This document shows positions 6,289 through 48,662 of a stretch of DNA of 48,662 nucleotides, one piece after another. The translations under genes were made by a program, and so were the position numbers. How positions within the stretch are numbered: the first letter of the stretch is position 1; the number at the start of each line of letters is the position of its first letter. Under the pieces are notes generated by a model, which had not been told where the DNA came from, made no database searches, and saw only the letters and a program-made list of their open reading frames with translations. Source of the DNA: a virus (taxonomy: Duplodnaviria; Heunggongvirae; Uroviricota; Caudoviricetes); the IMG/VR virus record IMGVR_UViG_2547132418_000015, one strand, 5' to 3'.

Positions 6289-6292
6289 GGTT

Positions 6293-8368
6293 TTACCAGC
6301 CTGTAATGTAGTTATCGCCCGCGTAAATATTCAGCCCCATACCATCCTCGGTGACGCGGGAACTGGTCAGACGTAACCCCTCGCCAAGTTCGACGCGCAG
6401 CGAGGCTTCCGCATTCACTTTTTGCTCCTGCGGTTCCTTATCCGTGGCCGTCCACTTCTGATACAGGTCGGTTACAAAACCGCCCAGATACTCCCCGGCG
6501 ACACTGCCCAGCGTGGCACCGGCAACCGTACCCAGCGGTCCGGCAAGGCTGCCAACGGCACCGCCGAGCCATGCACCGGCTGTACTGCCAATTGCGCCTG
6601 CTTTTTCATGGGTTGACGCCTGCTCATCCATCAGGACGGGGGCAAGCTGGAGTGCCCCCATTACCGGGCCACCCAGACGTGACAACGCACGCCCCGCGCC
6701 TTTCCCCATCCAGCCCAGCGCCCCGGCACCTTTTGTCACAACCCGACCGATCGCACTGCCTGCAAGTTTGTTTCCGATACCGGAAAACCCCCCGCCAGCG
6801 GCACGCCCGGCATCAGCCAGCTTTCCGACCGCTCCCGTAACCAGTTGCCCGGCAGCACTGCCTGCAAGCCTGCTCAGAAGACCGGATTTACCGGGTAAAG
6901 GTAATGGTGCAGGCCGTGCCGTTACCGGTACGCCGGGTGGGGGTAATGCCAGAACAGGGCGTGGTGCAGGTAATGCCAGCGGCTGTGGCCCGGACAGCAA
7001 TAACGGCTGGGGGGGGAACAGGGGCGTCATGCCTTTGCCTTTCCGGGTGCGACCACCACGGCCACCGCTTCCGTAACCGCCGAACCCGTGAGGCCAGTTA
7101 GTGACAAACACACGCTGAATGCCGGTGCCCTGCAACAGCGTCTCAGACGTCATGGCATCCGGGACCGGCAGACCTGCCTGCCCACGTTTGCGGTTTCGCA
7201 TCCAGCGCCACATACGACGCCCGGTTTTAAACGGATAACTGGCAACCTGCCATGAGGGGTTTGCCACGGCCCAGCCTGCTCTCAGGGCTTTATTGGCAAG
7301 CCAGACAGACACCAGAACAGCAGCCAGTTTTTTCAGGCTGACAATATTCTGGTCAACCCATGCCAGCGCATCTTTACCCGGTTTCAGCCAGCGCCATAAT
7401 TCCTGCGCCGCGATTTTTACCTTTCTGAACGTGGTCAGGAATTTCTGACCAATGTTTTCTGCCAGTGCGTCCAGCTCCCCGGATTTATCCGCCGCATCGT
7501 GCCAGTTAAGCACCCGGCGCATCTCGTTCTTGATTTCTTCAAAGGGGCCGCTGTTTGCCACCTTCGTGCGAAACTCAAGCAGGTTGCCCTCCATCTGGGC
7601 CATCATCCCGTCCCAGGAGTTCATGGCAGCCGCCTGTGCGCCTTCTGACTGCTCCAGCAGGGTCCGGAATACCGTCAGAATGGCTTTCTTGCCCAGCTTG
7701 CCTTTTTCACCCAGCTTACGGATTTTTTTCTCATCCTTACCCGTTGCATCTGCCAGCACCTTGTAAACGTTGATACCGTAACCGGTCAGCAGGTTGGCGT
7801 CCGCCGCCGTGATTTGCTGGCGGGCAAACATCTGTTTGAACTGTAACGAAGCCCCCTGCGCGGTGGGTAAATCCCAGCCATGCATCGCGCCCTGATTCTG
7901 TAGCATGGTGATGAACTGTTTTACCTGGGCGTCAGTCATGCCAAACGCCGTTGATGTGCGGATTTCCTGCAGAACGCCGCCCAGCCCCCAGGTGGTTTCT
8001 TTTGCGTTCTGCTTCGCCCACGCCATCATGGCCTGTGCTCTGGCCTTATCGCCGTGATACAGCGAGTTCATGGCGATAATCTGCTGCTCACGCTGGGCGG
8101 CGGCACCAATAAACAGTTTATTGGCGGTGTAACCCACGCCAGCGATACCCAGCGCCCCGGCTGACAGCATTCGGAATGTACGGGTTGACAGTGAACCCAT
8201 TCTGTCAATGGCACCAGAAACGCGCACAACCTCCATACGCAGGGCACGAAGGGAACTTTGTCCGCTACGGGACAGGGCGTTTATCTGGTTCGAATACTCG
8301 CGGGAACGCCGGGAAAGATTGCCATTAAGATCAATAATGACAGACGCCTTTAAGCGTTTCCCGGTCAT
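6293..8368 (-). CDS. Tail tape measure protein
   Basis: 691-aa ORF starting MTGKRLKAS with a Gly/Ala/Pro-rich C-terminal part, between chaperone and baseplate genes. Confidence 0.85.
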
Positions 8369-32641: not shown

Positions 32642-32654
32642 GTGCTGATTTATG

Positions 32655-32957
32655 TCAGACGGGATTTTGCTTATCAATTATTGAGAACAGAAATTTTCCT
32701 GAATCATCAATACTATACTTAGCAAGTAAAGGTGTTTTCTCATTTATCTGCTTGAGTGCAGGATCAAGGAAAGATCGTTTCAACTCTGCCAAGTTCTTCT
32801 GCTGGGATTCCGGTAAGACGAAACGGTCATTTAACCAAGCATGAGTAGTAACCCATAAGCCTGAAGATTTGAATTGAGCAAGACTTTCATAAAGGCGGAT
32901 CGTCCGGGGATTTCGAAGACTGCCACAATCGCGGAGCGAGTAGGTGGTGAACTGGTT
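32655..32957 (-). pseudogene. Remnant of a second Rep_3-family initiator gene (C-terminal about 99 codons)
   Basis: Minus-strand translation QFTTYSLRDCGSLRNPRTIRLYESLAQFKSSGLWVTTHAWL...INEKTPLL...DKQNPV aligns with the C-terminus of the rep gene at 40612-41334; cut by IS1 at 32957/32958. Confidence 0.75.
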
Positions 32958-32972
32958 GGTAATGACTCCAAC

Positions 32973-33476
32973 TTACTGATAGTGTTTTATGTTCAGATAA
33001 TGCCCGATGACTTTGTCATGCAGCGCCACCGATTTTGAGAACGACAGTGACTTCCTGCCCAGCCTTGCCAGATGCTGCCTCAGATTCTGGTTATGCCGCT
33101 CAATTCGCTGCGTATATCGCTTGCTGATAACGTGCAGTTCTCCCTTCAGGCGGGATTCATAAAGCGGCCAGCCATCCGTCATCCATACCACGACCTCAAA
33201 GGCCGACAGCAGGCCCGGAAGACGCTCCAGCGTGGCCAGAGTACGCTCACCAAAGACGCGTGCCACCACCGTCCTGCACATCCTGCCATAGGCGTAAAAT
33301 AACCAGCGCTGACGTGATTTAGCCCCGACGTAGCCCCACTGTTCGTCCATTTCCGCGCAGACAATGACGTCACTGCCCGGTTGTATGCGTGAGGTTACCG
33401 ACTGCGGTCTGAGTTTTTTAAGTGACGTAAAATCGTGTTGAGGCCAACGCCCATAATGCGGGCGGTTGCCCGGCAT
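32973..33476 (-). CDS. insB: IS1 InsB (transposase frame, made as InsAB' by frameshifting)
   Basis: 167-aa ORF ...[22 protein letters not shown]... Confidence 0.88.
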
Positions 33477-33670
33477 CCAACGCCATTCATGGCCATATCA
33501 ATGATTTTCTGGTGCGTACCGGGCTGAGAGGCGGTGTAAGTGAACTGTAGCTGCCATGTTTTACGGCAGTGAGAGCAGAGATAGCGCTGATGTCCGGCAG
33601 TACTTTTACCGTTACGCACCACGCCTTCAGTAGCTGAGCAGGAGGGACAACTGATGGAGATGGAAGCCAC
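33395..33670 (-). CDS. insA: IS1 InsA
   Basis: 91-aa [46 protein letters not shown]... Confidence 0.9.
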
Positions 33671-33729
33671 TGGAGCACCTCAAAGACACCATCGTACACT
33701 AAATCAGTAAGTTGGCACCATTATCCGGC

Positions 33730-35650
33730 AGGCGATCTGGATTATCGTCACGCTGTTAAATATGTCGCGGTAGGGATACCCGTTACCGGATACCCCCCGC
33801 ACAGATCCCGGCGTGCGCGATTTACGCACCGGGCTCCTGCCTCGGGTGTCTGGCGGTGAACCGCTCCACAGGCCATGGATGAAGAACCCGAACCCTTGGT
33901 AGCCATGCGGCTGCCAGTTTGTTTGCTTTCGTCCAGGTCGTATCATCCTTCTGGCTCCTGCGCCTGAGCGCCCGGCGCCAGAGGTTTGTTACGTGTGTCC
34001 TGAACTTCTGCATGGTGGGGAAGTTGCCCGGTACCGAGTGATAGTTCAGGTATCCCTGAACCACTCTCCTGAGCCATTTTCCCTGTTCGGGGATTGAGTA
34101 ATGCCAGCGCCTTCGCAGACCGTCTTTGATGGCTTTCAGAGTTGCCGTCATCCGATCCCGGCGGGTCTTTCGTATCAGCATGAACCTGCCGTTGCGATCT
34201 TTCCCGCTGATGTGCGTGAACCCGAGGAAGTTGAACGTTTCTGGTTTGCCTTTTCCCCTGATGGCACGGTTTTCGGCAGCGAAGCGGCCGAACTCCATCA
34301 GACGGGTTTTCTCCGGGTGAACCGTGAGTCCGAACTCCCTCAGTCTGCGCTGCATGGCTATACGGAAGCGCCGGGCATCGTATCGTTTGTCGAACCCGAT
34401 GACGATGTCATCGGCGTATCTGACCATTACCACATTGCCTGTGGCATAGCGACGTCGCCACTGATGCGCCCACAGATCGAAGACGTAGTGGAGGTATATG
34501 TTTGCCAGCAGCGGTGAGATGACCGCACCCTGTGGGGTGCCTTCCTCCGTTGCTCGCCATTGACCCTCCTCCAACGTCCCGGCTGTGAGCCACTTACGTA
34601 TGAGCCTGATTACGCTCCGGTCGCCGATCCGATGCTCTGTGAACCTGATCAGCCATTCGTGGCTCACCCTGTCGAAGAACTGACTGATGTCGGCATCCAG
34701 TACCCAGTTTACGTTAGTGCGTACCAGCCCTGTGGCCAGTGCGTCCAGTGCATCGTGCTGGCTTCGCCCGGGTCTGAACCCGTATGAGAACCCCATAAAG
34801 TCGTTTTCATAGACTGCGTTCAGGATTTTCACCAGCGCATACTGGACGATCTTGTCCTCCAGCGAGGCGATGCCGAGCGGGCGTTGTTTTCCATCCGCTT
34901 TTGGGATGTAGTGACGCCTGCCGGGCTGCGCCCTGTAGCTGCCCTAATGTAGCCTCCGGTGCAGATCTGTTATGTTGTTCTTCATGTTTCCGGCGTAGTC
35001 CATCCACCTGATGCCATCCACTCCGGCGGCCGCTTTCCTGCTCAGGGAGAGGAATGCGGCTTCCAGTGCTTCGACTGTCAGCAGGTGGAACAATGCTGTA
35101 AACCGTTCTTTCTTCCGCTGCTTCGCAGCTTCCCGCACGCGTGACAGCCTCTGTGACATGCTTTCCCGGCTCTGTGTCCGGCGCATGTGTGGCTGTTCCG
35201 CGTTCCCCTTGGCCCCGCTCCTTCGCTCCACTGACTCCGCTCCTTTCGGGTTGTTCGCCTGCTTCGCCGCTACTATGAGCGAGTCCGACTTCTCCTCTCC
35301 GTACATCACCGGCTATGACTCCTCGTCTTCCCGGTGCGGGCCGTCTCCGACACTGGCAGATGGTCAGAGGGGAGATCTCCCGGTTCCCGCGTAGAGATCG
35401 TATTGACATGCCAGGGTCTCAGACCCCGCCGGGTCCATGTGGCACTCGCAGTATCGCACCCTATGATGTTGCCTTCCGTTAACAGTACAACGTCGGCACC
35501 CGGTAATTTAATATACATTTCGTGGCTCAATGGCTGGCCTGTCAACACCCCTGTCAACGCTTCGCCCCATACCTCGCGGTATGCAACGCATGACTCGGGG
35601 ACCTTGTGGATTGCTGGTCCTTCAATGGTCGGGGACTTTCACCCCTTGAT
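33730..35650 (-). mobile_element. Group II intron 1, boundaries approximate, 5' end possibly truncated
   Basis: Reverse transcriptase ORF; domain V-like GAGCCCGGTGCGTAAATCGCGCACGCCGGGATCT on the minus strand at about 33803-33836. Confidence 0.6.
33822..35309 (-). pseudogene. Group II intron reverse transcriptase/maturase interrupted by an in-frame TAG
   Basis: ORFs 34944..35309 and 33822..34832 are in the same frame, separated only by TAG at 34944-34946; motifs AAGVDG, FRPGRSQHDA, YADD. Confidence 0.8.
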
Positions 35651-35674
35651 CTCTACCGGTCTCCCGGTGAGCAC

Positions 35675-35690
35675 TGTATGTATAACCAGT
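35675..35690 (+). promoter_or_regulatory. LexA (SOS) box upstream of the umuD-like gene
   Basis: CTGTATGTATAACCAG fits CTG-N10-CAG, 26 bp upstream of the ATG. Confidence 0.75.
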
Positions 35691-35715
35691 AAAATTAGAG
35701 TGTCAGGAGGAAAGA

Positions 35716-36146
35716 TGAAACTACAACTTTTCAGCACCGGGAAAGAACTCCCGCCACAGGCCCATCCATTGTTTGCCGATCTGGCCAGCTGCGGTTTTCC
35801 CAGCCCTGCTGCTGACTATGTCGAGTCCGATCTGGATCTCCATGATTACTGCATACGGCATCCGAGCGCGACGTACTACCTGCGTGCCAGCGGAGACAGC
35901 ATGGCCGACGGCAGTCTGTACAATGGCGATCTGCTGGTTGTGGACAGTGCTGAAAAGCCGCGGCACGGCGATATCGTTGTCGCCAGCATGCAGGGGGAGT
36001 TTACGGTGAAACGGCTTCTGCTGACGCCGCGACTGACGCTGCAGCCCATGAATGCCTCCTGGTCGCCGATTTATCCTGATCCCGACGAGCTGGATATCTT
36101 TGGCGTCGTCACGCATATCATCCACCGCCCGAGGGAGATGTACTGA
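35716..36146 (+). CDS. UmuD-like translesion polymerase accessory protein
   Basis: 143-aa [37 protein letters not shown]... with Cys-Gly cleavage site; track ORF 35334..36146 is a spurious upstream extension. Confidence 0.88.
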
Positions 36147-37417
36147 TGTTTGCCCTGGCCGATGTGAACAGCTTCTATGCCAGCTGTGAACGTGTTTTCC
36201 GCCCGGATTTGAAAGGAAAGCCGATAGTCGTCCTGAGCAACAACGACGGGAATGTAATCGCTCGCAGTGCCGAGGCGAAGCCCTGGATCAAAATGGAAAC
36301 TCCGTGGTTTCAGATAAAAAACGAAAGATACCCGGAAAAAATATATGCGTTTTCAAGTAACTATGAACTTTATGCCTCGATGTTGGCGCGCGTGATGAAC
36401 AGCCTGGAGGAACTGGCCCCCAGAGTGGAACAGTATTCAATTGATGAGATGTTCCTCGATTTGACCGGCGTGGAGCACTGTATGGAGCTTGAGGACTTCG
36501 GCCGGCAGCTGCGTCAGCACGTGTATGACTGTACCCACCTGACCATTGGCGTGGGCGCCGGACCAACGAAGACCCTCGCAAAATCAGCCCAGTGGGCCTC
36601 AAAAGAGTGGAAACAGTTTCGTGGCGTACTTGCTCTGACCAGGGGAAATCCGCAGAGAACGCGGAAACTGCTTTCACTGCAGCCGGTTGAAGAAATCTGG
36701 GGGGTGGGTAACCGTATTGCACGCAAGCTGAATGTACTGGGCATTAAGACCGCGCTCGATCTCGCCCTGACGAACCCGGCCTTCATCCGCAAAAATTTTT
36801 CTGTGGTCCTTGAGCGAACGGTACGGGAACTGAACGGGGAAAGCTGCCTTTCGCTTGAGGAAGCCCCTCCGACGAAACAGCAAATTGTCTGCAGCCGCAG
36901 TTTTGGCGTGAAGATCACGGAGTACGAGTCACTCCGTCAGGCTATCTGTCAGCACGCAGAGCGGGCCTCTGAAAAACTGCGTAAAGAGCACCAGTATTGC
37001 CGGCATATTTCCGTTTTCATCAAAACGTCTCCGTTCGCCATTAAAGAGCCTTACTACGGCAACGTGGCTACGGAAAAACTTCTTACACCCACTCAGGACA
37101 CCAGGGACATCATTGCAGCCGCTACAACGGCTCTGGAGCGTATCTGGAGGGATGGGCACCGGTATGCCAAAGCCGGAGTTATGCTGAATGACTTCACCGG
37201 CTCCGGCGTTTCGCAGCTGCAGCTGTTCGACGAACGCCCGCCACGCCCTTACAGTGCTGAGCTGATGAAGGTTCTGGACGGGATCAACAACTCAGGGCTG
37301 GGTAAAGTATGGTTTGCGGGGCGGGGTATTGCCCCGGAATGGCAGATGAAACGGGAGATGCTTTCTCCTGCTTATACGACACGATGGTCAGATATTCCTT
37401 CAGCGAAACTGGCGTAA
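36146..37417 (+). CDS. UmuC-like error-prone DNA polymerase V catalytic subunit
   Basis: 423-aa [22 protein letters not shown]...SNNDG..., Y-family polymerase; start overlaps the umuD-like stop. Confidence 0.9.
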
Positions 37418-37419
37418 AA

Positions 37420-37498
37420 CTTTGGCGATTTCACCTTGAAATTCTCAGCCTAAACTGCCTAATTACAATAAGTTAGATGTGAAATCGCCATGGCGAAA
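37420..37498. other. P1-type partition site parS
   Basis: ATTTCAC/GTGAAAT heptamers and TCGCCA/TGGCGA hexamers flanking an AT-rich segment, immediately downstream of parB. Confidence 0.7.
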
Positions 37499-38476
37499 TT
37501 ATTGACTCAAATTTCTGTCAAGGACCTCGTTGATAGCCTTGTCCAGTTCATCCTGAATCACTTTTGACATACGGCTAAACTCATAAGTCAGCGTACGCCC
37601 TTTCACACGCTTACGCGCGAACTTGTCCTTTTCTTCAAAAGACCAGAGTGGGGAAACCACTGACTTTTCCTTGGGAGATGGATCTATCAATGCCTGAGAT
37701 GCCTGAGAAATCAGCTTCAGTATACTGGCTTTCTGTTCGTCTTCTGGTCGCTCGCCTTCACTCAAAATTGCATCGAGCTGAGCTGATACAGACTGAATGA
37801 GTTCTTCAGGCGTTAATCCCTTTTCACTGAGTTTTTCATTAACTTCTAAAAGAAGTTTATAGTCACTAAACGATAGCTCCGACTGAACCGGGAACAGAGA
37901 AATCAAGTCTTGCGGTACGGCCGCCGCCTGCAGCGCCCTGGTAACTTTAGCTTGAGATAACCCCTCCAGTTCAGCAATTTCCTTTTGATTAAATCCGGAC
38001 TCTTTAAGAGCGATCAATCTCAGGCCAATCTCCCGAAGATTATGTTCTTTAGCTGTCTGGATATCTTTAGCCAGTTGGCGAGCTTCATCAGCTGATAAAT
38101 GCTCTTCGGTAACCATTACATCAAGGCCTGTACGGACAAAAATTGCTGAGGCTCGCCGTCTTGAACCATCCAGTATCTCAATCCTTTCACTTTGCTTAAT
38201 ACCAATACAGGGAAAGAACTGCTGAAACTTAATCGTCTGGATAATGGATTTCAGGGATTCCCTGGTCAGTGCAAGTTGATCTCTTCCGTTGTTTTCCTGG
38301 TTTACGAAGGTCTTACTTTCAACTTCAGATGCAGGCACCCGAACAAACCTGAACGTTACCTTCCTGCCGGTTTTTAAGGTAAATACCTGGCTTCTACCGG
38401 TGTCCGTCATTTCCGCAATTGACGCCTGGGTATTTAACTGTCTGCCGATGGTTTTTCTTTTCTCATTCGACATCAC
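37499..38476 (-). CDS. parB: Partition protein ParB (P1 type)
   Basis: 325-aa ORF with ...IEILDGSRRRASAI... and GLSQAKVTRALQAA motifs. Confidence 0.9.
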   Translation of the reverse strand: MMSNEKRKTIGRQLNTQASIAEMTDTGRSQVFTLKTGRKVTFRFVRVPASEVESKTFVNQENNGRDQLALTRESLKSIIQTIKFQQFFPCIGIKQSERIEILDGSRRRASAIFVRTGLDVMVTEEHLSADEARQLAKDIQTAKEHNLREIGLRLIALKESGFNQKEIAELEGLSQAKVTRALQAAAVPQDLISLFPVQSELSFSDYKLLLEVNEKLSEKGLTPEELIQSVSAQLDAILSEGERPEDEQKASILKLISQASQALIDPSPKEKSVVSPLWSFEEKDKFARKRVKGRTLTYEFSRMSKVIQDELDKAINEVLDRNLSQ

Positions 38477-39678
38477 ATACCTCCGTTAGTACGAATGAAC
38501 TCGATGCGATCAAAGACTGCCTTCGCAAAGTCTTCCGCTGCTGATTTTGCGCTTTTTAGTGCCTCTGTACTTCCATCATAGGTTGCTGGATTTGCTGAAA
38601 TAACTGTGTCAAAAGTCTCCCCACAACGTTCGAAACCATCCAGTCTTGGCAGAACCATGTCTAGCATATCGGCACCGAAAACCTCTTTGGCCTGACTATG
38701 GCAAATTTTGTGATCAGACTTGTTCAGGATCTTGGACATGAAGCCGACATTACCGATGAGATTGCAGGTGTGCCCATCCATTTCGATGGAATCTATGAGG
38801 GCAGGGAGGCTGGCCACAAACTTCAGGGAAGAATGAAAATCAACCGTCGCCGGTGGAAGAGGGGTCAACATCAGGTCTGCCGCCCCAATGCAGTTTTTCA
38901 GGAACGCATCAAGGTGAGGACCACTATCAAGGAAAATAAAGTCGTAGTCATGCTGGAGCTTGTCGATAATGTTCTCTTTAAGCACCGCATGAATATTTTT
39001 CCCTGGCAGATGTTCTTCACACAATCCCTTCCAGCCTTCAGCAAGGAATGCATCGTCAATGGAAGCGGGGATTACATCAACACCAGGGATAATAGACGGT
39101 ACTATAAAATCGGAAAGTAATTCTTCACGAGACACGTTCTGGAGCATGGCCTGAGCAGCCGTATTTTCAACCAAGCCCACTGAATTCTCATGGCTCAGGA
39201 ACATTGTCAGAGATGCCTGCGGATCGAAATCGATGGCCAGAATACGCAGGTCTTCGAACAGAAGCTGAGGATGAGCTCGAAAAGCATGTGATAATGAAGC
39301 GGTAGAAACTGTCTTGGAACCACCACCTTTAAGATTACATACAAAAATCGTAAAGGCTTTATCGAAGCGATCCCTGTACTTCGGTACTTTACGATGGTTA
39401 TACAGATCGATGACATTCTGAATCGTCATCGCGTATTTCATCGTATTACCAGAAGGTTTCTTTTTAAAAATGTAGCCACCGGCTTCCATTTCGGACACAG
39501 CATACTCAACACTGCCTTTACTGAGCTTAGGCAGCTTATACAGAGCGGCTTTGCTGTATTCCTGATAGAACTCGGTAAGCTTCAATTCCTCTTTTTGCTG
39601 TCGGATACTTTCGCTCAAAGATGTCAGAAGCTTACCTGCACGTGTAGCGACTTTCCGTAACTGCTCAATATTGTCCAT
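38473..39678 (-). CDS. parA: Partition ATPase ParA (type Ia, P1 type)
   Basis: 401-aa ORF with deviant Walker A CNLKGGGSKT and an N-terminal DNA-binding extension. Confidence 0.9.
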   Translation of the reverse strand: MDNIEQLRKVATRAGKLLTSLSESIRQQKEELKLTEFYQEYSKAALYKLPKLSKGSVEYAVSEMEAGGYIFKKKPSGNTMKYAMTIQNVIDLYNHRKVPKYRDRFDKAFTIFVCNLKGGGSKTVSTASLSHAFRAHPQLLFEDLRILAIDFDPQASLTMFLSHENSVGLVENTAAQAMLQNVSREELLSDFIVPSIIPGVDVIPASIDDAFLAEGWKGLCEEHLPGKNIHAVLKENIIDKLQHDYDFIFLDSGPHLDAFLKNCIGAADLMLTPLPPATVDFHSSLKFVASLPALIDSIEMDGHTCNLIGNVGFMSKILNKSDHKICHSQAKEVFGADMLDMVLPRLDGFERCGETFDTVISANPATYDGSTEALKSAKSAAEDFAKAVFDRIEFIRTNGGM

Positions 39679-39684
39679 TTATCA

Positions 39685-39730
39685 CCTCATGACGTTTTTT
39701 GTCATTTTGAACAAAAAGTGTCATGTTGCA
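39685..39730. promoter_or_regulatory. par promoter/operator with inverted repeats
   Basis: ATGACGTTTTTTGTCAT palindrome (39689-39705) immediately upstream of the parA ribosome-binding site. Confidence 0.55.
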
Positions 39731-40070
39731 AGAAAAAAAATCATATTGTTTTGATTTCGCTCTCAACAGAAGGGGGATGAAGCTCGACGGGCGTGCTACT
39801 AAATCACACTGCAGCAACACGCAGACGCACTTTTGACCATCAACAGCAACTCATACAAAAGGGCTTTGAGAAAGGTATTCAACTTGCAAGACAGGAGAGT
39901 CATTCAGAAGGATTCTGATTTTAGTTACGACCAGTGCAATGCTGAGCCTTATGTATCAGCGCTCGCCGCAGCCATGTAACCGAGCGTAGCGAGCGAACTG
40001 GCGAGGAAGCGAAGAGGAACCGTTCCGGCAGATAGCTCTTACGCTCAGCACAAGAAGAGTTTTCCATCCT

Positions 40071-40565
40071 CTGTGGGAAACAGGTCAACTTTAATGGACG
40101 CTCCGGACTATGGGAAACAGGTCAACTTCGCGGACGGCCCGGACTATGGGAAACAGGTCAACTTCACGGGCGGCCGGGAGTGTGGGGAACAGGTCAACTT
40201 CGCGGACGGCCCGGACTATGGGAAACAGGTCAACTTCACGGGCGGCCGGGAGTGTGGGGAACAGGTCAACTTCGCGGACGGCCCGGATTATGGGAAACAG
40301 GTCAACTTCGCGGGCGGCCGGGACTGTGGGAAACAGGTCAACTTTGCAGACGGCCCGGACTGTGGGAAACAGGTCAACTTCGCGGGCGGCCGGGAGTGTG
40401 GGGAACAGGTCAACTTCGCGGACGGCCCGGACTAAGGGAAACAGGTCAGCTTCTCGGACGGCCCGGACTATGGGAAACAGGTCAACTTCTCGGACGGTCG
40501 GGAGTGTGGGAAACAGGTCAAGTTAGGCAAGCACTATGGGAAACACAGCAAGTTCAGTATCCCCC
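40071..40565. repeat. Array of 13 direct 36-bp iterons plus one degenerate unit, downstream of rep
   Basis: Unit TGGGAAACAGGTCAACTTCGCGGACGGCCCGGACTA repeated at 36-37-bp period. Confidence 0.9.
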
Positions 40566-40611
40566 CATATGTCAGCAACAAACTAAGGGGGGAGGAAATA
40601 AAAATTACAGA

Positions 40612-41334
40612 CTATTGTTTTTTATCAAGAAAATTAAACAGCAAGCGACCATCTTCTTCAGTGGTATATGTTACCTTTAATGGCGTCTTCTCATTAATTT
40701 TCTTCAGAGCAGGTTCCAGGAAGGTACGCTTCATTTCAGCAATATTGTTTTTCTGCGAGGCAGGGAGCATAAACCTTTCACATAACCAGTCATGTGTGGT
40801 GATCCAGACACCAGTGCTCCGGAACTGACACAGGCTTTCATAAAGCCGGATGACACGAACACTATTAAGCTGGCCACAGTCATAGAGAGAATAGGTAGTG
40901 AACTGGGAGGTTAAGCCGACCAGGAATGGCATGACCTTGTAGTTAAATTCAATCTGCCAGGAACCCCGGCCTCGCTTCATTCCTGCTTCAGCCAGCCACG
41001 GACGTTTAACTTCTTCAAACTCACCTTCTTTTGGATAAAAGGTAACCGTTGATTCGCCCAGAGCATTTACCCCAGCCTTCACATCACGACTGGCGACAGA
41101 CGTAGCGACATTGAAGTATTTGACGTAATCGGAAACGCTGATTTTGAAGAGCGGCAATACGTCAGAGTCATCTTCCTGGCTGTCATTAAAATAGGCCTGC
41201 ATGAGGCATAACCACAGCACACGTTTTGCCTGAAGAGGCAGGTAATATGCAGCTTCGGTCAATTCGTTAGATTGCTTTATACTGGCGCGTTTTTTAAACG
41301 TTTTAGTAGCTGGCAAGAGTGCTTGAGTATCCAT
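40612..41334 (-). CDS. rep: Rep_3/RepE-family replication initiator
   Basis: ORF 40612..41493; start placed at ATG 41334 (MDTQALLPATKTFKKRASIKQSNELTEAAYYL...) because upstream codons overlap origin iterons; RLYESLCQFR motif. Confidence 0.82.
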   Translation of the reverse strand: MDTQALLPATKTFKKRASIKQSNELTEAAYYLPLQAKRVLWLCLMQAYFNDSQEDDSDVLPLFKISVSDYVKYFNVATSVASRDVKAGVNALGESTVTFYPKEGEFEEVKRPWLAEAGMKRGRGSWQIEFNYKVMPFLVGLTSQFTTYSLYDCGQLNSVRVIRLYESLCQFRSTGVWITTHDWLCERFMLPASQKNNIAEMKRTFLEPALKKINEKTPLKVTYTTEEDGRLLFNFLDKKQ

Positions 41335-41399
41335 TTCAATGCCTATGGGTAAATTTTTACCCACCCATAATGACAGTGAAAACAGAAATTGCAAGCTAT

Positions 41400-41690
41400 C
41401 GCGATACTTATCCACCGGAAAAATCTGCACTTTATCCACAAGTGGATAATTGAGAACTGAACTTGACCTCTTTCCCATAGCTTGTTGATGCATATCCCAT
41501 AGCTTGTTGACACAAAACCCACTGATACGTGATTAATTTCCCATATTATGTTTACCAGTTGCCCATACAGGCCCCCTCTCAGGCCGCACTGTACGCGGCT
41601 TTCAGGCTCCCTAAAAGATGTAAAATAAAGAAAAAGAATAAAAAAGTACTTTATAAAAATATGCCCGTGGATAAGTGGATAACCCCGAGG
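41400..41690. other. Vegetative replication origin: DnaA boxes, four spaced iteron cores, AT-rich segment
   Basis: TTATCCACAAGTGGATAA (41433-41450), GTGGATAAGTGGATAA (41666-41681), CCCATA cores at about 41475, 41497, 41541, 41563, AT-rich 41600-41660. Confidence 0.7.
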
Positions 41691-42025
41691 GGAGGTGATT
41701 TTTCAGGCATTGAGCGTAAGCAGAATTTATAAGTTTTGTTCCCTGGTGCTTCCTCGCTCACTCGGGGCTTCGCCCTGTCGCTCGACTGCGGCGAGCACTG
41801 CTGGCTCGATCATATCCGTGGCCGGAAGATACTACTCCTCCCCCGAGTCGCTCTCCAGAGCCGGCTACAGCGAGACAACCCGCACGAAGATTTCTATCGT
41901 CCCTGCAGACATATTCGAATCGTTTTTATTAACCCTGGCTTCCGTCGTGACAGAACACTACGTCCTGTAAAAGGGGGACTAAGGCCCCTGAATCACACAC
42001 CTGAATAATGCGGAGTTTTACGATA

Positions 42026-42112
42026 ATGTCATTGCTGGAAACTTTCCTGACCGCTTCTCAGGGGGCAACAATCCTGTTCCTTGCCATGCTGATTTACTGG
42101 CAAAAGCGATAA
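42026..42112 (+). CDS. Possible 28-aa hydrophobic peptide
   Basis: MSLLETFLTASQGATILFLAMLIYWQKR with GGAG upstream, followed by palindrome GCTGGCCTTTGGCCAGC; not in the ORF track. Confidence 0.25.
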   Translation: MSLLETFLTASQGATILFLAMLIYWQKR

Positions 42113-42240
42113 ATCCAAGCGGGCTGGCCTTTGGCCAGCTTCGCTGTATAAGGGGAAAAATGCGGCATATCCAGACATTTCACTAGGCAATTTGAATTCA
42201 GATATCTATGCTTGGGATCCGGTCAACAGGAGGTAACAAG

Positions 42241-42498
42241 ATGAAACTTGAAACTATACAGATAGATAATACCGTAAGGAGTGGTCTTAATTCTTTCACT
42301 GACGGGGTGATTATTCGTGATACAAAGGTATTGATCACGCTCAATCTCCCGGATGGACAGAAAACCACTATTGAGGGGGAATGGCGGCATATGTCGGACG
42401 CCAACAGGTTGTCAGAACGTATTACGATGCTTCAGCATGCGATCTATGAGCAGTATGAAGAATACAGAGCAGATATTCCCGTCAGCTGGTCCAGATAA
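42241..42498 (+). CDS. Hypothetical 85-aa protein
   Basis: ORF 42208..42498; ATG at 42241 (MKLETIQIDNTVRSG...) with AGGAGG ribosome-binding site. Confidence 0.55.
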   Translation: MKLETIQIDNTVRSGLNSFTDGVIIRDTKVLITLNLPDGQKTTIEGEWRHMSDANRLSERITMLQHAIYEQYEEYRADIPVSWSR

Positions 42499-42555
42499 CG
42501 TCTGACAGACCTCCCCGGCGAGCAGGACGTTCGCCAGCATCATTCTCCTAAGTAC

Positions 42556-43332
42556 TTAAATATTCCCTTTCAGCATGGCTACCGCATCCGCTTCGGGCAT
42601 CTGAAACTGAACTCGATGCCGCGCAGCAACATCAAGTGCGAACACCTTCGTATAGACTTCCGTCGAGCTAATCGATTTGTGGCCCATCAGGCTCTGCAAA
42701 ACCTTCAGTGGTATGCCGGCATACAGCATATGCATCGCGTAGGAGTGGCGGAACGTATGCGGGGTGACCGGCACCGAGAATGTCCCCCCGTCGACGGCGG
42801 CCGCTTCAACCGCTTCGCCAATCCAGGTCCGTACTGTCCGGTCGGTGATGTCCCAGATGCGGGCTTTCTCTGTTCTGCCGGTACGCTTGTTGCGTCTTTC
42901 CAGCGGAATTTTCAGGGTGGCCACCATCATCTGCAGCTGGCTGACGTAGTGGTGATCGGAAAGCGGAACCAGACGATGAGCCTGGCTACCGGCGGGAGCT
43001 CGGCCGGCTGTCCTGGCCGCTTTTTCGGTGCGCTGCTTAAGCGTGGCCAGCTGCACGAACGGATACGGTGGCACCAGCGAAAAATCCCCCCGGGTCAGCG
43101 CCAGCGCCTCGTTGATACGTGCGCCGGTGTTCCAGAGGGTTGCCAGCAGCATCTTGCGGTGCAAATCGGGCACATAATGGAGCAGGGCGCTGACTTCCGG
43201 TGCCAGCAGGTATTTCGGTAGTTCATCTTGAACGAGCGCCATCTGGCGCAGGGCCAGCGCGGCGGGATAGTCAATGGCCACCGGCATTTGCGCCGGCTGC
43301 TGCGGGTGAGAATATGATAAGAGGCCGCTCAT
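42556..43332 (-). CDS. Tyrosine site-specific recombinase, likely plasmid multimer resolvase
   Basis: 258-aa ORF with ...HTFRHSYAMHMLYAGIPLKVLQSLMGHKSISSTEVYTKV... (R-H-R-Y active-site pattern). Confidence 0.85.
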   Translation of the reverse strand: MSGLLSYSHPQQPAQMPVAIDYPAALALRQMALVQDELPKYLLAPEVSALLHYVPDLHRKMLLATLWNTGARINEALALTRGDFSLVPPYPFVQLATLKQRTEKAARTAGRAPAGSQAHRLVPLSDHHYVSQLQMMVATLKIPLERRNKRTGRTEKARIWDITDRTVRTWIGEAVEAAAVDGGTFSVPVTPHTFRHSYAMHMLYAGIPLKVLQSLMGHKSISSTEVYTKVFALDVAARHRVQFQMPEADAVAMLKGNI

Positions 43333-44072
43333 TGGTTTGACATTCCATCAGGTATCACTAATTGATTCCACTCCCTGTTGCGGGTAGCTTCAGCAGCGCG
43401 CAGGGCTCTTTCGCGCCTCCAGACTTTACGAAACACGGAAACTGCAGACCATTCATCATGACCTGTAAGACGTGTTTCGGGCATCCCGGTTGCCTTGCGC
43501 AGACGGACGGCAAGAATGACAGCGTTGATGCCCAAGCGCGTGAACTGATACTGCCGTTCCCTGAAATAGTCCTTATGCCAAGGAGGGTCGGAGTATTCGG
43601 CGGCATATGCAATTGCCCTGTGGGCCTCATCCTGGAGCACCGGCAGTTCACGGATGCGATACATAAGACGTGGCTCTAAAGTCCGCCAGTCACCGGAGAC
43701 ATCGATCAGATTCAGTTCAGGGTAATTCGTGACAGCTTTTCTCTCAGGCTGGGGGGCATCATCATCCTGGCCGTCATCCGTCACAACCCGGAAACAACCC
43801 TCAGCATACCGTTCAAGCATGAATACCAACTCGGTGGCAATGTAATGCAGTTCCTTTTTCATTTTATCTTCTGACGCCTGTCTCTCACGCTTAAGCGTGA
43901 AATAATGTGTCAGCCAGATGCCAGTGAGTGTTATACCCCCAGTAAGCAGGCCAGTGATAAGCCCGGTTGCCACGTTTCCCCAGATCCCCGCCCCTTGATT
44001 AATCAGCTGTACGGAAACCGGATGGGATGTCGCAGCAACTATACTCTCAGTTGCGGCCTGTATATCAGTCAT
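43329..44072 (-). CDS. Hypothetical membrane-anchored protein, stop overlaps the recombinase start
   Basis: 247-aa ORF with N-terminal hydrophobic segment GNVATGLITGLLTGGITLTGIWLTHYF; 4-nt overlap with 42556..43332. Confidence 0.6.
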   Translation of the reverse strand: MTDIQAATESIVAATSHPVSVQLINQGAGIWGNVATGLITGLLTGGITLTGIWLTHYFTLKRERQASEDKMKKELHYIATELVFMLERYAEGCFRVVTDDGQDDDAPQPERKAVTNYPELNLIDVSGDWRTLEPRLMYRIRELPVLQDEAHRAIAYAAEYSDPPWHKDYFRERQYQFTRLGINAVILAVRLRKATGMPETRLTGHDEWSAVSVFRKVWRRERALRAAEATRNREWNQLVIPDGMSNQ

Positions 44073-44122
44073 TGATCATTTACCCCTTTATATTCCTGAG
44101 AAATCCCGCCCTCTGTCCGTAG

Positions 44123-44473
44123 TCAGCGGCCGGCAGCCAGCTCTTCAGCCAGTTTCACAAACCTTTTGTGCTCAGTCTGCAGGTAATGGCTGTAAATCCG
44201 GGCATCACGTTCTGTCAGTCCGGATGGATTGCCGGTGAAGTAACGTTGCAGCACCGCAATACAGTGATTGTAGGTATCGAGATCATATTCCCAGTTTCCC
44301 AGCTCACCGGCCGCATCCAGTTCCTGGCGAAACTGCTCGTATTTACGGAGCAGAATGCCAAGACCTAATTCTGTTGCAGCATAAAGATTATTTTCTCCTG
44401 GCGCGGAAATCGCATTACGGATTTTTTCAAAAGCATAACTGAAATCATTTCTCTCATTGAATGCAGTAAACAT
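44123..44473 (-). CDS. Hypothetical 116-aa protein, first gene of the recombinase operon
   Basis: ORF 50 bp upstream of the membrane-protein gene, same strand. Confidence 0.55.
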   Translation of the reverse strand: MFTAFNERNDFSYAFEKIRNAISAPGENNLYAATELGLGILLRKYEQFRQELDAAGELGNWEYDLDTYNHCIAVLQRYFTGNPSGLTERDARIYSHYLQTEHKRFVKLAEELAAGR

Positions 44474-44549
44474 GTCCTTTCCTCAGTTGAATAGTTAGCC
44501 GTGCAATTTTACCACACCTCAATCATCGTCAGATGAGTGCCACTCTGTC

Positions 44550-44585
44550 GTGACAGTGACTTTCACTAGAGTGATTTTCACATAC
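44550..44585. promoter_or_regulatory. Two short palindromes upstream of the 116-aa gene
   Basis: AGTGA-CTT-TCACT (44555-44567) and GTGA-TTT-TCAC (44571-44581). Confidence 0.4.
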
Positions 44586-44879
44586 TAAAATAATAAGCAG
44601 CCATATAACAACGTAATTAAATTACCTGACGGCCGCTCTGGCCGGATCCGACTTTTATGTTATTCCACAGTTTCCGGAAGTGTACCACGCACACGGAATA
44701 ACCACAGCGCCCTTTCAGGGTGGTGAGCGGCCGGTCACGGGGCAGGGGAGGGACACAACATATATGGTCACTGACAGCTGGAAACACCGCTACATCTTGT
44801 GTTTCCGGGCCGCTGCGCGCCGGCGGGGCTGAATCAGATCCGGAACTGCCTTTTTTCGGATCTGAGCGGGAAAAGTGAG

Positions 44880-45046
44880 AAACCAACATAGGTGTAACAT
44901 ATCCATATGCCGGGCATCTGCATAGGCAAAGCATACGCATATACCTACCATCTGCATATGTAACACCTATACAAGCCGGGCTTGCAGGCATATACTTCAC
45001 CTATGCGGGAATACTCCCTGGCACACTCAGCATATGAGGAAAAACC
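44880..45046. promoter_or_regulatory. Repeat-rich region upstream of vapB
   Basis: Inverted repeat ATAGGTGTAACATAT / ATATGTAACACCTAT; palindromes ATGCCGGGCAT and CAAGCCGGGCTTG; AGGAAAAACC ribosome-binding site before ATG 45047. Confidence 0.4.
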
Positions 45047-45277
45047 ATGCGCACAGTTTCGATATTTAAAAACGGCAATAACCGCGCCATCCGTCTGCCC
45101 CGGGACCTGGATTTTGACGGCGTCAGCGAGCTGGAGATCGTCCGGGAAGGGGACAGCATCATTCTGCGTCCCGTCCGGCCGACCTGGGGCTCGTTCGCGC
45201 AGCTGGACAGGGCCGATCCGGACTTTATGGCGGAGCGTGAGGATGTGGTCAGCGATGAAGGACGTTTTGAGCCATGA
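45047..45277 (+). CDS. vapB: VapB-type antitoxin (AbrB/SpoVT fold)
   Basis: 76-aa MRTVSIFKNGNNRAIRLPRDLDFDGVSELEIVREGDSIILRPV...; stop overlaps the vapC start. Confidence 0.85.
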   Translation: MRTVSIFKNGNNRAIRLPRDLDFDGVSELEIVREGDSIILRPVRPTWGSFAQLDRADPDFMAEREDVVSDEGRFEP

Positions 45278-45690
45278 AGAAAACCTGGATGCTCGATACT
45301 AACATCTGCTCGTTCATCATGCGCGAGCAGCCGGCAGCGGTGCTGAAGCGCCTGGAGCAGGCGGTGCTGCGCGGTGATCGCATCGTGGTCTCGGCCGTGA
45401 CATATGCCGAGATGCGCTTCGGCGCCACCGGCCCGAAGGCCTCGCCGCGCCATATTCAGCTGGTCGACGCGTTCTGCGCGCGCCTCGATGCCGTCCTGCC
45501 CTGGGACCGCGCCGCGGTGGACGCCACGACGGACATCCGGGTGGCGCTGCGCCTAGCCGGGACGCCGATCGGCCCGAATGACACGGCCATTGCCGGGCAC
45601 GCCATCGCGGCGGGCGCCATCCTGGTGACGAACAATGTGAGAGAGTTTGCGCGGGTCCCGGGCCTGGTGCTGGAAGACTGGGTGAAATAA
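45274..45690 (+). CDS. vapC: VapC-type PIN-domain toxin
   Basis: 138-aa MKKTWMLDTNICSFIMREQ... with conserved acidic residues. Confidence 0.85.
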   Translation: MKKTWMLDTNICSFIMREQPAAVLKRLEQAVLRGDRIVVSAVTYAEMRFGATGPKASPRHIQLVDAFCARLDAVLPWDRAAVDATTDIRVALRLAGTPIGPNDTAIAGHAIAAGAILVTNNVREFARVPGLVLEDWVK

Positions 45691-45834
45691 TCCCGTAATA
45701 ATTTCCGTGACGGAGACGACAGACATGAATGGGCTTTGTTGAATAAATCGAACTTTTGCTGAGTTGAAGGATCAGATCACGCATCCTCCCGACTGGATTT
45801 GCCCCTATATTTCCAGACACCTGTTATCACTTAA

Positions 45835-45914
45835 TGGAGTGACCCCGAGCCCGTAGACAAATCTGCCCTATAGTTGGAGTGACCCCGAGCCCGTAGACAA
45901 ATCTGCCCTATAGT
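45835..45914 (+). repeat. Perfect 40-bp tandem duplication between the IS end and orfA
   Basis: TGGAGTGACCCCGAGCCCGTAGACAAATCTGCCCTATAGT at 45835-45874 and again at 45875-45914. Confidence 0.95.
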
Positions 45915-45933
45915 TTGAGCATAGGAGGAGTCT

Positions 45934-46218
45934 ATGGGCACATCACGTTTTACCCCTGAATTTAAGGAAGAGGCCGTCCGCCAGATCACCGAGCGGGGCT
46001 ATTCTATTGCTGAAGTATCTGAACGGCTCGGCGTGTCGGCGCACAGCCTATATAAATGGCTCCGGGCTGTTAAGCCTGACAACAGTGGACAGCAGGCACA
46101 GGATTTACTGGATGCCAGAACAGAAATTCTCAGGCTGAAAGCACAGCTTAAACGCACTGAGGAAGAGCGGGATATTCTGAAAAAGGCAGCGCGGTACTTT
46201 GCAAGGGAGCCCGACTGA
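45934..46218 (+). CDS. IS3-family transposase OrfA
   Basis: 94-aa ORF with helix-turn-helix and leucine-zipper-like C-terminus ending ...DILKKAARYFAREPD; AGGAGG ribosome-binding site. Confidence 0.85.
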   Translation: MGTSRFTPEFKEEAVRQITERGYSIAEVSERLGVSAHSLYKWLRAVKPDNSGQQAQDLLDARTEILRLKAQLKRTEEERDILKKAARYFAREPD

Positions 46219-46265
46219 AGTATCGCTTTATCAACGATCACCGTGAAATCTGGTCGATCGTTACA

Positions 46266-46620
46266 ATGTGTCGGGTCCTTAAGGTTGCCCGTGCCGGATT
46301 TTATGTCTGGCTCCATAACCCTGTATCTGCCGGAGAAAAGGATAACCAGCGACTGCTGGAACTCATCCGCGACTCCTATACGCTGAGTGGTGGAGTTTAC
46401 GGTTATCGCAGGGTTCATGGCGATCTTCGCGAAATTGGCGAAGTGTGCAGCAGAAACCGGGTTGCCAAAATCATGAGGAAAAACAGGATTCAGGCTATAC
46501 ATGGTTATAAAGTGCCACGCGGGAGCCGGGGACGACCGTCACTGATAGCGCCTAATCACGTGCGGCGTGAATTTACTGTAGTGAAGCCCAATCAGGTGTG
46601 GGTCACCGACATCACCTACA
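46266..46620 (+). pseudogene. IS3-family transposase OrfB, N-terminal part, interrupted by a group II intron
   Basis: Ends ...NQVWVTDITY, then the reading frame enters intron sequence beginning GTGTG at 46621. Confidence 0.8.
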
Positions 46621-48308
46621 GTGTGCCCGGAGTTCAGGGCGGGCATGGATGCTTAAATGAACCGCGAGTCTGTCTGGAATATTGAACCGGTAACTCACGA
46701 TGAGAAACCCAACAATCCCACCGGGTGTGACGGTGGAGAACCTGAGCGGCAGTGACCTGCGGCATGCCCGCAGGGTGATGTAACCCGCTGACAACGGGGA
46801 TTGAGGCGAGATCACTAAGCCGAGATGATCCTCAAGGTTAAGTACTGAAAGGCTGAAGAACATGAACCCGTTAATCCGCCTCTGTGGGTTGAAAACGTCA
46901 CCACGGCCTACGTGATCTGACAGGCCGTGCAGGAGGAACTGGCAGTGATACGTAAGCACTGCCGGTCGAAGGTGTTTTGACATGTATGCGAAACACCGGG
47001 GCAGCAGCGTCTATCACGCTTGCGTTGCTGACTTCTGCCAACTTGCGGCAAGCAAGGATAAAGAGTGCGACGGGCAGCCTCCTCAGTATGCCTGAGTCCA
47101 GGCAGGTAAACCGGGGAAGGTCAGCGACGGATGTTAAGGGGGCATGGCTCCGATGACGCGCTGGCTGGCGGAGCTTCCGTAGTAGTCCGCGATGGGGAAA
47201 GCCCATTACATGGCGAAGGGAAGCAGTTTGAATGTGTTTGCGACGTGAATTAACTGACCTAACGAGGTGAAGACCTTTGATAATCAGCGAAATGCAACGC
47301 AAGCTTGCCACATGGGCAGCCACCGATCCGTCCCTACGGATTCAACGGCTGCTGCGTCTGATAACACAACCAGAATGGCTGGCTGAAGCGGCGCGGATCA
47401 CGCTTTCATCAAAGGGGGCGCATACCCCCGGCGTTGATGGCGTGAACAAAACAATGCTACAGGCCAGACTGGCTGTTGAGCTGCAAATCCTCAGGGATGA
47501 ATTACTCTCAGGCCACTACCAGCCCTTGCCCGCCAGACGGGTTTACATCCCTAAAAGCAACGGCAAACTGCGACCACTGGGTATCCCCGCGTTGCGGGAT
47601 CGTATTGTTCAGCGGGCCATGCTGATGGCGATGGAGCCGATATGGGAGAGTGATTTTCATACGCTCTCATATGGCTTCCGGCCTGAGCGCAGTGTCCACC
47701 ACGCGATCCGCACGGTGAAATTACAGCTCACAGACTGCGGTGAAACCCGGGGACGCTGGGTGATTGAAGGCGACCTGTCCAGTTACTTCGACACCGTACA
47801 TCATCGACTGCTGATGAAGGCTGTACGCCGCAGGATCAGTGACGCACGTTTCATGACTCTGCTGTGGAAAACCATCAAGGCGGGACATATCGATGTCGGT
47901 CTCTTTCGGGCGGCCAGTGAAGGTGTGCCACAGGGCGGTGTTATATCGCCGCTATTATCGAACATCATGCTGAATGAGTTCGATCAATACCTGCATGAGC
48001 GCTACCTGAGCGGGAAAGCCAGAAAAGATCGGTGGTACTGGAATAACAGTATCCAACGGGGCCGAAGTACGGCGGTCAGAGAAAACTGGCAGTGGAAACC
48101 CGCGGTGGCGTACTGCCGCTATGCCGATGATTTTGTCCCCATCGTCAAAGGCACCAAAGCACAGGCGGAAGCCATCAGGGAGGAGTGTCGGGGTGTGCTC
48201 GAAGGCAGTCTGAAACTCAGGCTGAACATGGATAAGACTAAAATCACCCATGTTAATGACGGCTTTATCTTTCTGGGGCACAGGATCATTCGCAAACGCA
48301 GTCGTTAT
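46621..48308 (+). mobile_element. Group II intron 2 (5' part), inserted in IS3-family orfB and truncated by IS26
   Basis: Starts GTGTGCCCGG; about 656 nt of structured 5' region, then a reverse transcriptase ORF that runs into the IS26 terminal repeat at 48309. Confidence 0.8.
47277..48308 (+). pseudogene. Group II intron reverse transcriptase/maturase, C-terminally truncated by IS26
   Basis: ORF 47277..48335 with HTPGVDGVNK, YIPKSNGKLRPLG, YCRYADDFV motifs; last residues are read from the IS26 terminal repeat. Confidence 0.85.
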
Positions 48309-48662
48309 GGCACTGTTGCAAATAGTCGGTGGTGATAAACTTATCATCCCCTTTTGCTGATGGAGCTGCACATGAACCCATTCAAAGGCCGGCATTTTCA
48401 GCGTGACATCATTCTGTGGGCCGTACGCTGGTACTGCAAATACGGCATCAGTTACCGTGAGCTGCAGGAGATGCTGGCTGAACGCGGAGTGAATGTCGAT
48501 CACTCCACGATTTACCGCTGGGTTCAGCGTTATGCGCCTGAAATGGAAAAACGGCTGCGCTGGTACTGGCGTAACCCTTCCGATCTTTGCCCGTGGCACA
48601 TGGATGAAACCTACGTGAAGGTCAATGGCCGCTGGGCGTATCTGTACCGGGCCGTCGACAGC
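48309..48662 (+). mobile_element. IS26, 5' part beginning with terminal repeat GGCACTGTTGCAAA
   Basis: Terminal repeat at 48309-48322, transposase start at 48372; 48432-48662 is identical to 1-231. Confidence 0.93.
48372..48662 (+). CDS. tnpA: IS26 transposase, N-terminal part
   Basis: MNPFKGRHFQRDIILWAVRWYCKYGISYRELQEMLAERGVNVDHSTIYRWVQRYAPEMEKRLRWYWRNPSDLCPWHMDETYVKVNGRWAYLYRAVDS. Confidence 0.93.
   Translation, partial: MNPFKGRHFQRDIILWAVRWYCKYGISYRELQEMLAERGVNVDHSTIYRWVQRYAPEMEKRLRWYWRNPSDLCPWHMDETYVKVNGRWAYLYRAVDS

Follow-up and report, generated by a model that had tools for sequence, protein, structure and literature searches.

A probable 5′ fragment of the group II intron E.c.I4 in ISEc15, cut off by IS26 on an IncR-type plasmid backbone

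E.c.I4 is a group II intron of bacterial class A and is approximately 99% identical to S.f.I1 (PMC3522654, PMC3552965). It inserts at specific positions of IS3-like transposase genes, those of the insertion sequences (ISs) IS629, IS911, ISEc16 and ISEc31 (Leclercq & Cordaux, PMC3522654), and it is placed in class A among the intron open reading frames (ORFs) without a recognisable DNA-binding/endonuclease (D/En) region (Toro & Martinez-Abarca, PMC3552965). An element with the same sequence, the same DITY target in an IS3-family orfB gene, the same 5′ GUGUG, and a reverse transcriptase (RT)/maturase that likewise lacks an endonuclease domain is present in the IMG/VR virus record IMGVR_UViG_2547132418_000015 (Caudoviricetes), a stretch of 48,662 nucleotides that was analysed in its entirety and is referred to in the following as the window. 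Judged from the sequence comparisons presented below, this element is, with very high probability, the 5′ part of E.c.I4 residing in ISEc15, a member of the IS3 family, that was later cut off by IS26. E.c.I4 itself was reportedly first described by Dai and Zimmerly in 2002.

The copy in the window deviates from the published E.c.I4 in that it comprises only nucleotides 1-1688 and in that its host, ISEc15, is not among the four ISs named in PMC3522654. The closest described parallel is found in the CP4-6 prophage of Escherichia coli K-12, where a truncated copy (E.c.I4-tr1, with eyeA and ykfC) stands between IS911A and IS5A; there, the intron occupies the same position within orfB, and its RT ORF has likewise been cut short by a third IS. 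Both loci share an identical EyeA stretch, and the truncated RT (YkfC) is nearly identical to that of the window. The two loci differ, however, in their host element (IS911 in K-12, ISEc15 in the window), in the truncating element and its position (IS5 at nucleotide 1764 versus IS26 at nucleotide 1688), and in their surroundings, a chromosomal prophage in K-12 and a plasmid context in the window.

An even closer match is provided by the E. coli D6 plasmid A (NZ_CP010149.1), whose positions 178505-181127 (2623 nt) are 100% identical to the window and contain the intron/IS26 junction in exactly the same form. Beyond IS26, the D6 plasmid carries a truncated mef(B) gene and sul3, whereas the window continues into a Mu-like prophage; in a local BLAST comparison only positions 32642-48322 of the window were collinear with the D6 plasmid. 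RmInt1, which resides in ISRm2011-2 of Sinorhizobium meliloti, is reportedly another group II intron without an endonuclease domain whose natural homing site lies within an IS. RmInt1 is a class D intron; with its different intron class, its different host IS family and its unrelated sequence, it offers an analogy of lifestyle only.

The combination ISEc15::E.c.I4 is found in the same context as in the window in at least 298 plasmid records, and the intact copy of E.c.I4 has matches in 2669 of the 5426 complete E. coli genomes, where the features annotated under the matches are for the most part fragments of IS3-family transposases. Our literature search returned no paper that links ISEc15 with group II introns. 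The finding as such is already known, and the behaviour of E.c.I4 at this locus matches the published accounts. An identity of 100% to one public plasmid over the 2623-nt stretch, and of 99.8% to many others, shows that the arrangement is not a product of chance. The nested architecture that had been proposed from the sequence alone, an IS3-family orfB interrupted by a group II intron that is itself cut by IS26, was found with all of its features in place; the assignment to an IS3-family element and a group II intron was right and can now be refined to ISEc15 and E.c.I4, with the correction that it is the intron, and not the IS, that abuts IS26.

Identity, boundaries and content of the intron fragment

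The E.c.I4 fragment extends from position 46621 to 48308 on the plus strand and corresponds to nucleotides 1-1688 of the 2270 nucleotides of the full element; it comprises the ribozyme domains upstream of the ORF and the first two thirds of the ORF that is located in domain IV. The continuation of the element can be studied in the Klebsiella pneumoniae plasmid pSCLC3-1_4 (record L001), to which the window is 99.84% identical over positions 45875-48311 and in which an intact copy of E.c.I4 of 2270 nt occupies positions 4882-7151. The ORF of this copy encodes a protein of 502 amino acids (ltrA, WP_001189111.1) that contains an RVT_1 domain and the maturase domain GIIM (residues 356-421) and reaches 341 bits with the TIGR04416 model (group_II_RT_mat), a score above the cut-off. 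Directly after its stop codon, the covariance model RF00029 for domains V/VI matches positions 7065-7151 of L001 with 64.9 bits (E=1.3e-11).

The element was named E.c.I4 because of its near-identity to the published K-12 copy: positions 46583-48311 of the window are 98.96% identical over 1729 nt to the CP4-6 fragment (NC_000913.3, 272191-273954; positions 4192-5955 of record L003). This fragment is listed as 'E.c.I4-tr1', class A, 1764 bp, with 99% identity to the reference, at 271415-273178 in an older numbering (PMC3522654 supplement, Tables S2/S3). The K-12 match and the published E.c.I4-tr1 are one and the same stretch, the shift in coordinates between the versions being deduced from the matching length and position. 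The comparison with known introns of E. coli that the sequence-only reading had suggested as a check has therefore given the fragment its identity, with 99.8% to the intact copies alongside the value for K-12.

The intron boundaries were set by a comparison of host elements and not by covariance models. Insertion of E.c.I4 at the same codon position (DITY|I/V) is found in ISEc15, IS1133, ISKpn11 and IS911-like elements. When the junctions in these four host ISs were aligned (the IS911-like elements being those of E. coli C and K-12), the identity began exactly at GTGTGCCCGG and ended exactly at ...CCTCTTACTCTAC (...CTCTAC) in all four hosts, while the flanks diverged and shared only the codons for ...PNQ.W..D(I/V)TY | (I/V). 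Joining of the exons restores the orfB reading frame (...VTDITYIRTWQGW... in frame), and the joined exons of ISEc15 give an open orfB of the IS3 type (...VWVTDITYIRTWQGWLYLAVVIDLF...HSD). Uninterrupted ISEc15 sites, recovered by BLAST as one piece, are present in 424 plasmid records, almost all of them with 99-100% identity; one of these (record L009) shares the vapBC-ISEc15 context of the window but lacks the intron. Taken together, the comparison of the four hosts, the restored reading frame and the empty sites fix the 5′ end of the intron at 46621 and its full length at 2270 nt. The GUGUG at 46621 fits the GUGYG consensus of group II intron 5′ ends. The same 5′ end had been proposed before and stands, as GTGTGCCCGG starts at this very position; the accompanying statement that GTGTG begins with the base following the DITY codons was off by one, as an A at 46620 intervenes. 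This A opens the Ile/Val codon, whose other two bases are supplied by the 3′ exon.

Two segments of the intron RNA are candidates for the exon-binding sites (EBS) that pair with the intron-binding sites (IBS) of the target. A putative EBS1 (UGUGGGU; 46883-46889, plus strand) could pair with the exon positions -7 to -1 (ACCUACA), and when G-U pairs are allowed it would form 7/7 pairs with ISEc15, IS1133 and the IS911-like elements, and 6/7 with ISKpn11. A putative EBS2 (UGAUGU; 46776-46781, plus strand) emerged from a complementarity scan as the counterpart of exon positions -12 to -7 (ACAUCA), and local folding places it in the loop of a hairpin. Both candidates find partners at the sites of all four hosts, but matches as short as these are not rare by chance. 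Minimum free energy folding of the 656-nt 5′ region produced no recognisable group II domain I architecture.

These 656 nt (46621-47276) separate the intron 5′ end from the RT ORF, exactly as an approximate earlier count had it. The truncated ORF (47277-48335, plus strand) starts with TTG at 47277 or, in the manner of RefSeq annotations, with ATG at 47292. Its last native codon ends at 48308-48311, after which the left inverted repeat (IRL) of IS26 contributes eight codons and a stop. RVT_1 (E=9e-34) matches residues 91-337 of the 344 native residues, and TIGR04416 matches with 295.1 bits over profile positions 4-271 of 353, a score that falls just below the cut-off of 300 owing to the truncation of the ORF. 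The YADD motif is kept; adjacent to it, one of the four substitutions relative to L001 causes a change from Leu to Pro. The maturase domain GIIM was not found in the window ORF, which ends at residue 339 in the numbering of the intact protein, and the RF00029 model for domains V/VI has no match in the window fragment at E<=10. The missing intron 3′ part, already suspected, was borne out by BLAST: with the intact element as the query, no part of the window beyond 48311 was matched. By its sequence, the copy in the window is a 5′ fragment of a group II intron and not a functional intron: with domains V and VI gone, its RNA should be unable to splice, and with the X domain gone, its protein should be unable to act as a maturase.

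A stretch of the fragment (47010-47084, plus strand) has 100% identity to the K-12 locus that bears the annotation small RNA EyeA (b4690). In K-12, EyeA lies inside the CP4-6 fragment of E.c.I4, so that the K-12 'sRNA' corresponds to a piece of group II intron RNA.

The host element ISEc15 and the junction with IS26

ISEc15 is represented in the window by its 5′ 786 bp (45835-46620, plus strand), which end at the intron insertion point and, over their 786 nt, show 99.4% identity to a complete ISEc15 (record L008, 1936-2721). This complete, annotated element has a length of approximately 1270 bp and extends from an IRL beginning with TGGAGTGACC... to a right inverted repeat (IRR) ending with ...GGTCACTCCA at position 3205 of L008. 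Copies that are 100% identical to the window carry the RefSeq label 'IS3-like element ISEc15 family transposase'. A repeat search and the program Tandem Repeats Finder (TRF) revealed that the left end consists of two tandem, perfect 40-nt repeats (45835-45914, plus strand), the first of which bears the terminal inverted repeat. The possibility that this duplication is a peculiarity or an artefact of the window sequence was ruled out, as both copies are present in the complete ISEc15 of L008 and in L009; pSCLC3-1_4 has a single copy (L001, 4136-4175).

The first gene of the element, orfA (45934-46218, plus strand), encodes a protein of 94 amino acids with a helix-turn-helix (HTH) domain (PF01527 HTH_Tnp_1, E=1.3e-18) and corresponds to positions 1-86 of the IS3 transposase model NF033516 (transpos_IS3). 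By the rule of the IS3 family, a -1 frameshift from orfA to orfB would probably occur at CTG AAA AAG (46177-46185, plus strand); the putative slippage motif in the window reads G AAA AAG, as compared with the classic A AAA AAG. When read from 46185, the -1 frame stays open to 46619 (GSAVLCKGARLKYRFINDH...VTDITY). The N-terminal part of orfB (46185-46620, plus strand) contains PF13276 (HTH_21), matches positions 85-225 of NF033516, and stops one base after VTDITY, the motif of the first catalytic Asp; the ORF at 46266-46619 ends with NQVWVTDITY, in accord with the earlier description of an intact frame up to this point. Jointly, orfA and the orfB fragment cover positions 1-225 of the 369 positions of NF033516. 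In relatives, the remaining DDE domain (…HSD…) lies beyond the intron. Neither the 3′ part of ISEc15, nor the rest of its DDE (rve) domain, nor its IRR, all present in L008, was detected in the window when an intact copy was compared by BLAST with the whole of it; the search matched positions 45875-48311 only, in keeping with the claim that the rest of the IS is missing. With two of the three DDE residues and the right end lost, this ISEc15 copy would not be able to transpose.

The left end of IS26 occupies positions 48309-48662 (plus strand); its IRL (48309-48322) is the 14-bp inverted repeat GGCACTGTTGCAAA, the tnp26 gene starts at 48372, and the encoded protein matches DDE_Tnp_IS240. That the RT ORF runs into the IS26 repeat at 48309 is correct, since GGCACTGTTGCAAA starts there. 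This left end is 100% identical to the annotated IS26 of NZ_CP010149.1. The trinucleotide GGC is common to the IS26 end and to the intact intron (...CGTTATGGC|GAG), which makes the position of the junction ambiguous by 3 nt, from 48308/9 to 48311/12.

If the window is circular, the remainder of the same IS26 is found at positions 1-692 (plus strand), with the IRR at 679-692; positions 1-226 duplicate positions 48437-48662, and after removal of this 226-nt overlap the rebuilt IS26 measures exactly 820 bp. The two ends of the window are 100% identical over 226 nt, and the record thus has the appearance of a circle of 48,436 bp whose ends overlap; this molecule would carry one IS26 and a replication/partition segment of the IncR type.

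The flanks of IS26, GTCGTTAT on the left versus CTTTTTTG on the right, show no 8-bp target duplication, and the far side of the element (693 onward) is occupied by a tail-fibre gene of a Mu-like phage. From the lack of a target duplication and the unrelated far side we infer that IS26 stands at the junction left by a deletion or recombination, with later reshuffling, and not at a simple insertion. Among the PLSDB records, that of the D6 plasmid A alone has the same intron/IS26 junction as an uninterrupted piece; there, unlike in the window, the far side of IS26 is the truncated mef(B).

Order of events and alternative explanations

Four mobile-element events have left their layers at this locus, which directly follows vapBC on a plasmid backbone of the IncR type. 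In the order of events that we propose, ISEc15 would have inserted just downstream of vapBC on this backbone, and E.c.I4 would then have retrohomed into its usual target, the conserved ...W.xDITY|[I/V] segment of an IS3-family orfB, in which the codon of the first catalytic Asp is located. As in group II introns that have been characterised, the intron RNA, once excised, would reverse-splice into a DNA site recognised mainly through EBS/IBS pairing and would be copied by the RT. An IS26-mediated event would subsequently have removed everything past intron nucleotide 1688, and the fragment would have been joined to unrelated DNA; the losses would comprise the thumb and the maturase (X) domain of the RT, the rest of domain IV, domains V and VI, the 3′ remnant of ISEc15, and what followed it.

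Relatives show a further layer, which is absent from the window. Where the intron is intact or missing, an IS110-family element (transposase WP_000227969.1; L001 7335-8514, L009 ~2905-4249) truncates the ISEc15 orfB immediately behind its second catalytic motif (...VHSD), and in L001 this element is itself cut by IS26. As the empty site of L009 and the occupied site of L001 share the IS110 junction, the intron most likely homed into an ISEc15 copy that was already dead. The IS26 event would have come last and would have taken with it the 3′ third of the intron, the ISEc15 remnant and the IS110-family element. Given the parts that have been lost, the ISEc15 and E.c.I4 copies of the window are best regarded as inactive relics, and IS26 as the only potentially active element of the stack.

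The E.c.I4 interpretation, together with this scenario, can be challenged on several grounds. The Rfam models for group II domains D1-D4 found no match in positions 45700-48662 even at E<=10, but they also found none on the intact copy at E<=1, although domains V/VI score 64.9 bits there. The covariance-model check of the 5′ end at 46621, designated beforehand as the test by which that end could be refuted, is therefore uninformative, as D1-D4 models miss the intact copies as well. The same models do detect an unrelated intron remnant at 35414-35639 of the window, and they apparently do not cover the class of E.c.I4. As a refutation of the intron, the silence of Rfam was dropped, the intact copy being equally missed by D1-D4 while its domains V/VI score well. 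Three further points weigh against individual parts of the interpretation: the candidate EBS1 and EBS2 are matches by complementarity only, and a 7-nt match with G-U pairs allowed is expected, by our estimate, about once per two tries in 650 nt; placing the IS110 truncation ahead of homing presupposes that introns are seldom lost precisely; and the inert status of the elements is deduced from the parts that are missing at the DNA level.

Among other explanations, one might assume a simple insertion of IS26 into an intact ISEc15::E.c.I4, with the remaining parts split off and lying directly beyond IS26 instead of having been deleted. IS26 often inserts into other elements, and the window ends inside IS26, so that its far side is not directly visible at that end. 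The overlap of positions 1-226 and 48437-48662, however, rebuilds the 820-bp IS26 with the Mu-like tail-fibre gene on its other flank, the two flanks lack a duplication, no intron or ISEc15 3′ part is found anywhere in the window, and the same junction in NZ_CP010149.1 leads to the truncated mef(B) and not to the intron; a simple insertion is thus extremely improbable. That the RT ORF is a stand-alone RT of the retron or defence type, with a coincidental GTGTG in front of it, is hardly conceivable. Secondary matches to the models of the retron St85 RT, Drt2 and Drt3a do exist and, in conjunction with the missing Rfam group II match in the fragment, would speak for such an RT, but they are weak (E ~1e-12 to 1e-14) and far below the cut-offs, while group_II_RT_mat is by far the best model with 295 bits. 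Moreover, full copies with 99.8% identity carry GIIM and, directly after the ORF, domains V/VI, they have precise boundaries in four different host genes, and the sequence is that of the published E.c.I4.

It might also be envisioned that the fragment is functional, with an EyeA-like small RNA and/or a YkfC-like RT without an X domain having a role of its own, and that truncated copies persist for this reason. If true, this would explain the independently truncated copies of similar extent in K-12 and in the plasmid of the window. The complete identity of positions 47010-47084 to the EyeA locus, the retention in K-12 of an independently truncated copy (IS5 at nucleotide 1764 versus IS26 at nucleotide 1688), and an RT ORF that is still open and has an intact YADD motif are in line with this idea. 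Against it stand the lengths of the published E.c.I4 fragments, which with 132, 405, 985 and 1764 bp have no common truncation point (PMC3522654 supplement), the presence of the exact junction in only one other plasmid record, and the fact that the RT lacks its thumb and X domain. We consider a functional remnant very improbable and favour the interpretation of the element as an E.c.I4 fragment in ISEc15 cut off by IS26. In our view, this nested mobile-element wreckage on a resistance-plasmid backbone is of an ordinary and already documented kind.

Neighbouring features and significance of the locus

A vapB/vapC toxin-antitoxin pair of the vagC/vagD type (45047-45690), so annotated in the matching plasmids and an ordinary part of their backbone, is positioned directly upstream of the IS stack. 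Between the vapC stop codon (45690) and the IRL of ISEc15, a stretch at about 45728-45790 reads GGCTTTGTTGAATAAATCGAACTTTTGCTGAGTTGAAGGATCAGATCACGCATC..., which we take to be the terminal inverted repeat region of IS903; it would then be a further IS remnant underneath ISEc15. The IncR segment also contains a tandem array (40074-40521) with 12.4 copies of a 36-nt unit (TGGGAAACAGGTCAACTTCGCGGACGGCCCGGACTA; 85% matches). It aligns with many gaps to the D6 plasmid, where this region is bordered by the partition genes on one side and by the replication initiator gene on the other, and it could represent an array of the iteron or centromere-like type.

A second, unrelated group II intron remnant is located at 33822-35639 on the minus strand and accounts for the only match in the window that reaches the Rfam gathering level (RF02005, group-II-D1D4-6, 186.6 bits, 35414-35639). 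Its RT frame is split into the segments 34944-35309 and 33822-34832, the latter with an RVT_1 match (E=1.6e-39), and the ORF of an IS1 transposase (32973-33476) lies just 3′ of it. The remnant is immediately upstream of, and divergent from, umuD-like (35715-36146) and umuC-like (36146-37417) genes.

The plasmid backbone carries a Mu-like transposable prophage of approximately 32 kb (693-32641), which aligns in blocks of 72-97% identity with the E. coli record CP088505.1; annotated there are a Mu transposase, an AAA ATPase, Gam, GemA, a late-transcription activator, a terminase, a DUF935 protein, a gpT head protein, and tail sheath, tape measure, baseplate and tail fibre proteins. At 32641, the prophage end reads TGTATTGATTCACTTGAAGTACGAAAAAAACCGGGAGG on the minus strand, presumably the left-end sequence of Mu, and the collinearity with the D6 plasmid A starts exactly at 32642. 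At its other end, the tail-fibre gene is cut by IS26 at 692/693.

The locus described here matters little in itself, and serves as a worked example of the pile-up of mobile elements on resistance plasmids. Public records provide the empty, the occupied, and the occupied-then-truncated state of one and the same site, so that the events can be dated relative to each other. In annotations, both the truncated RT ORF and the fragment of orfB ought to be labelled pseudogenes and remnants, and not genes. The intron/IS26 junction, shared with one other PLSDB record, is a rare marker that could serve for tracing the lineage of this IncR segment.

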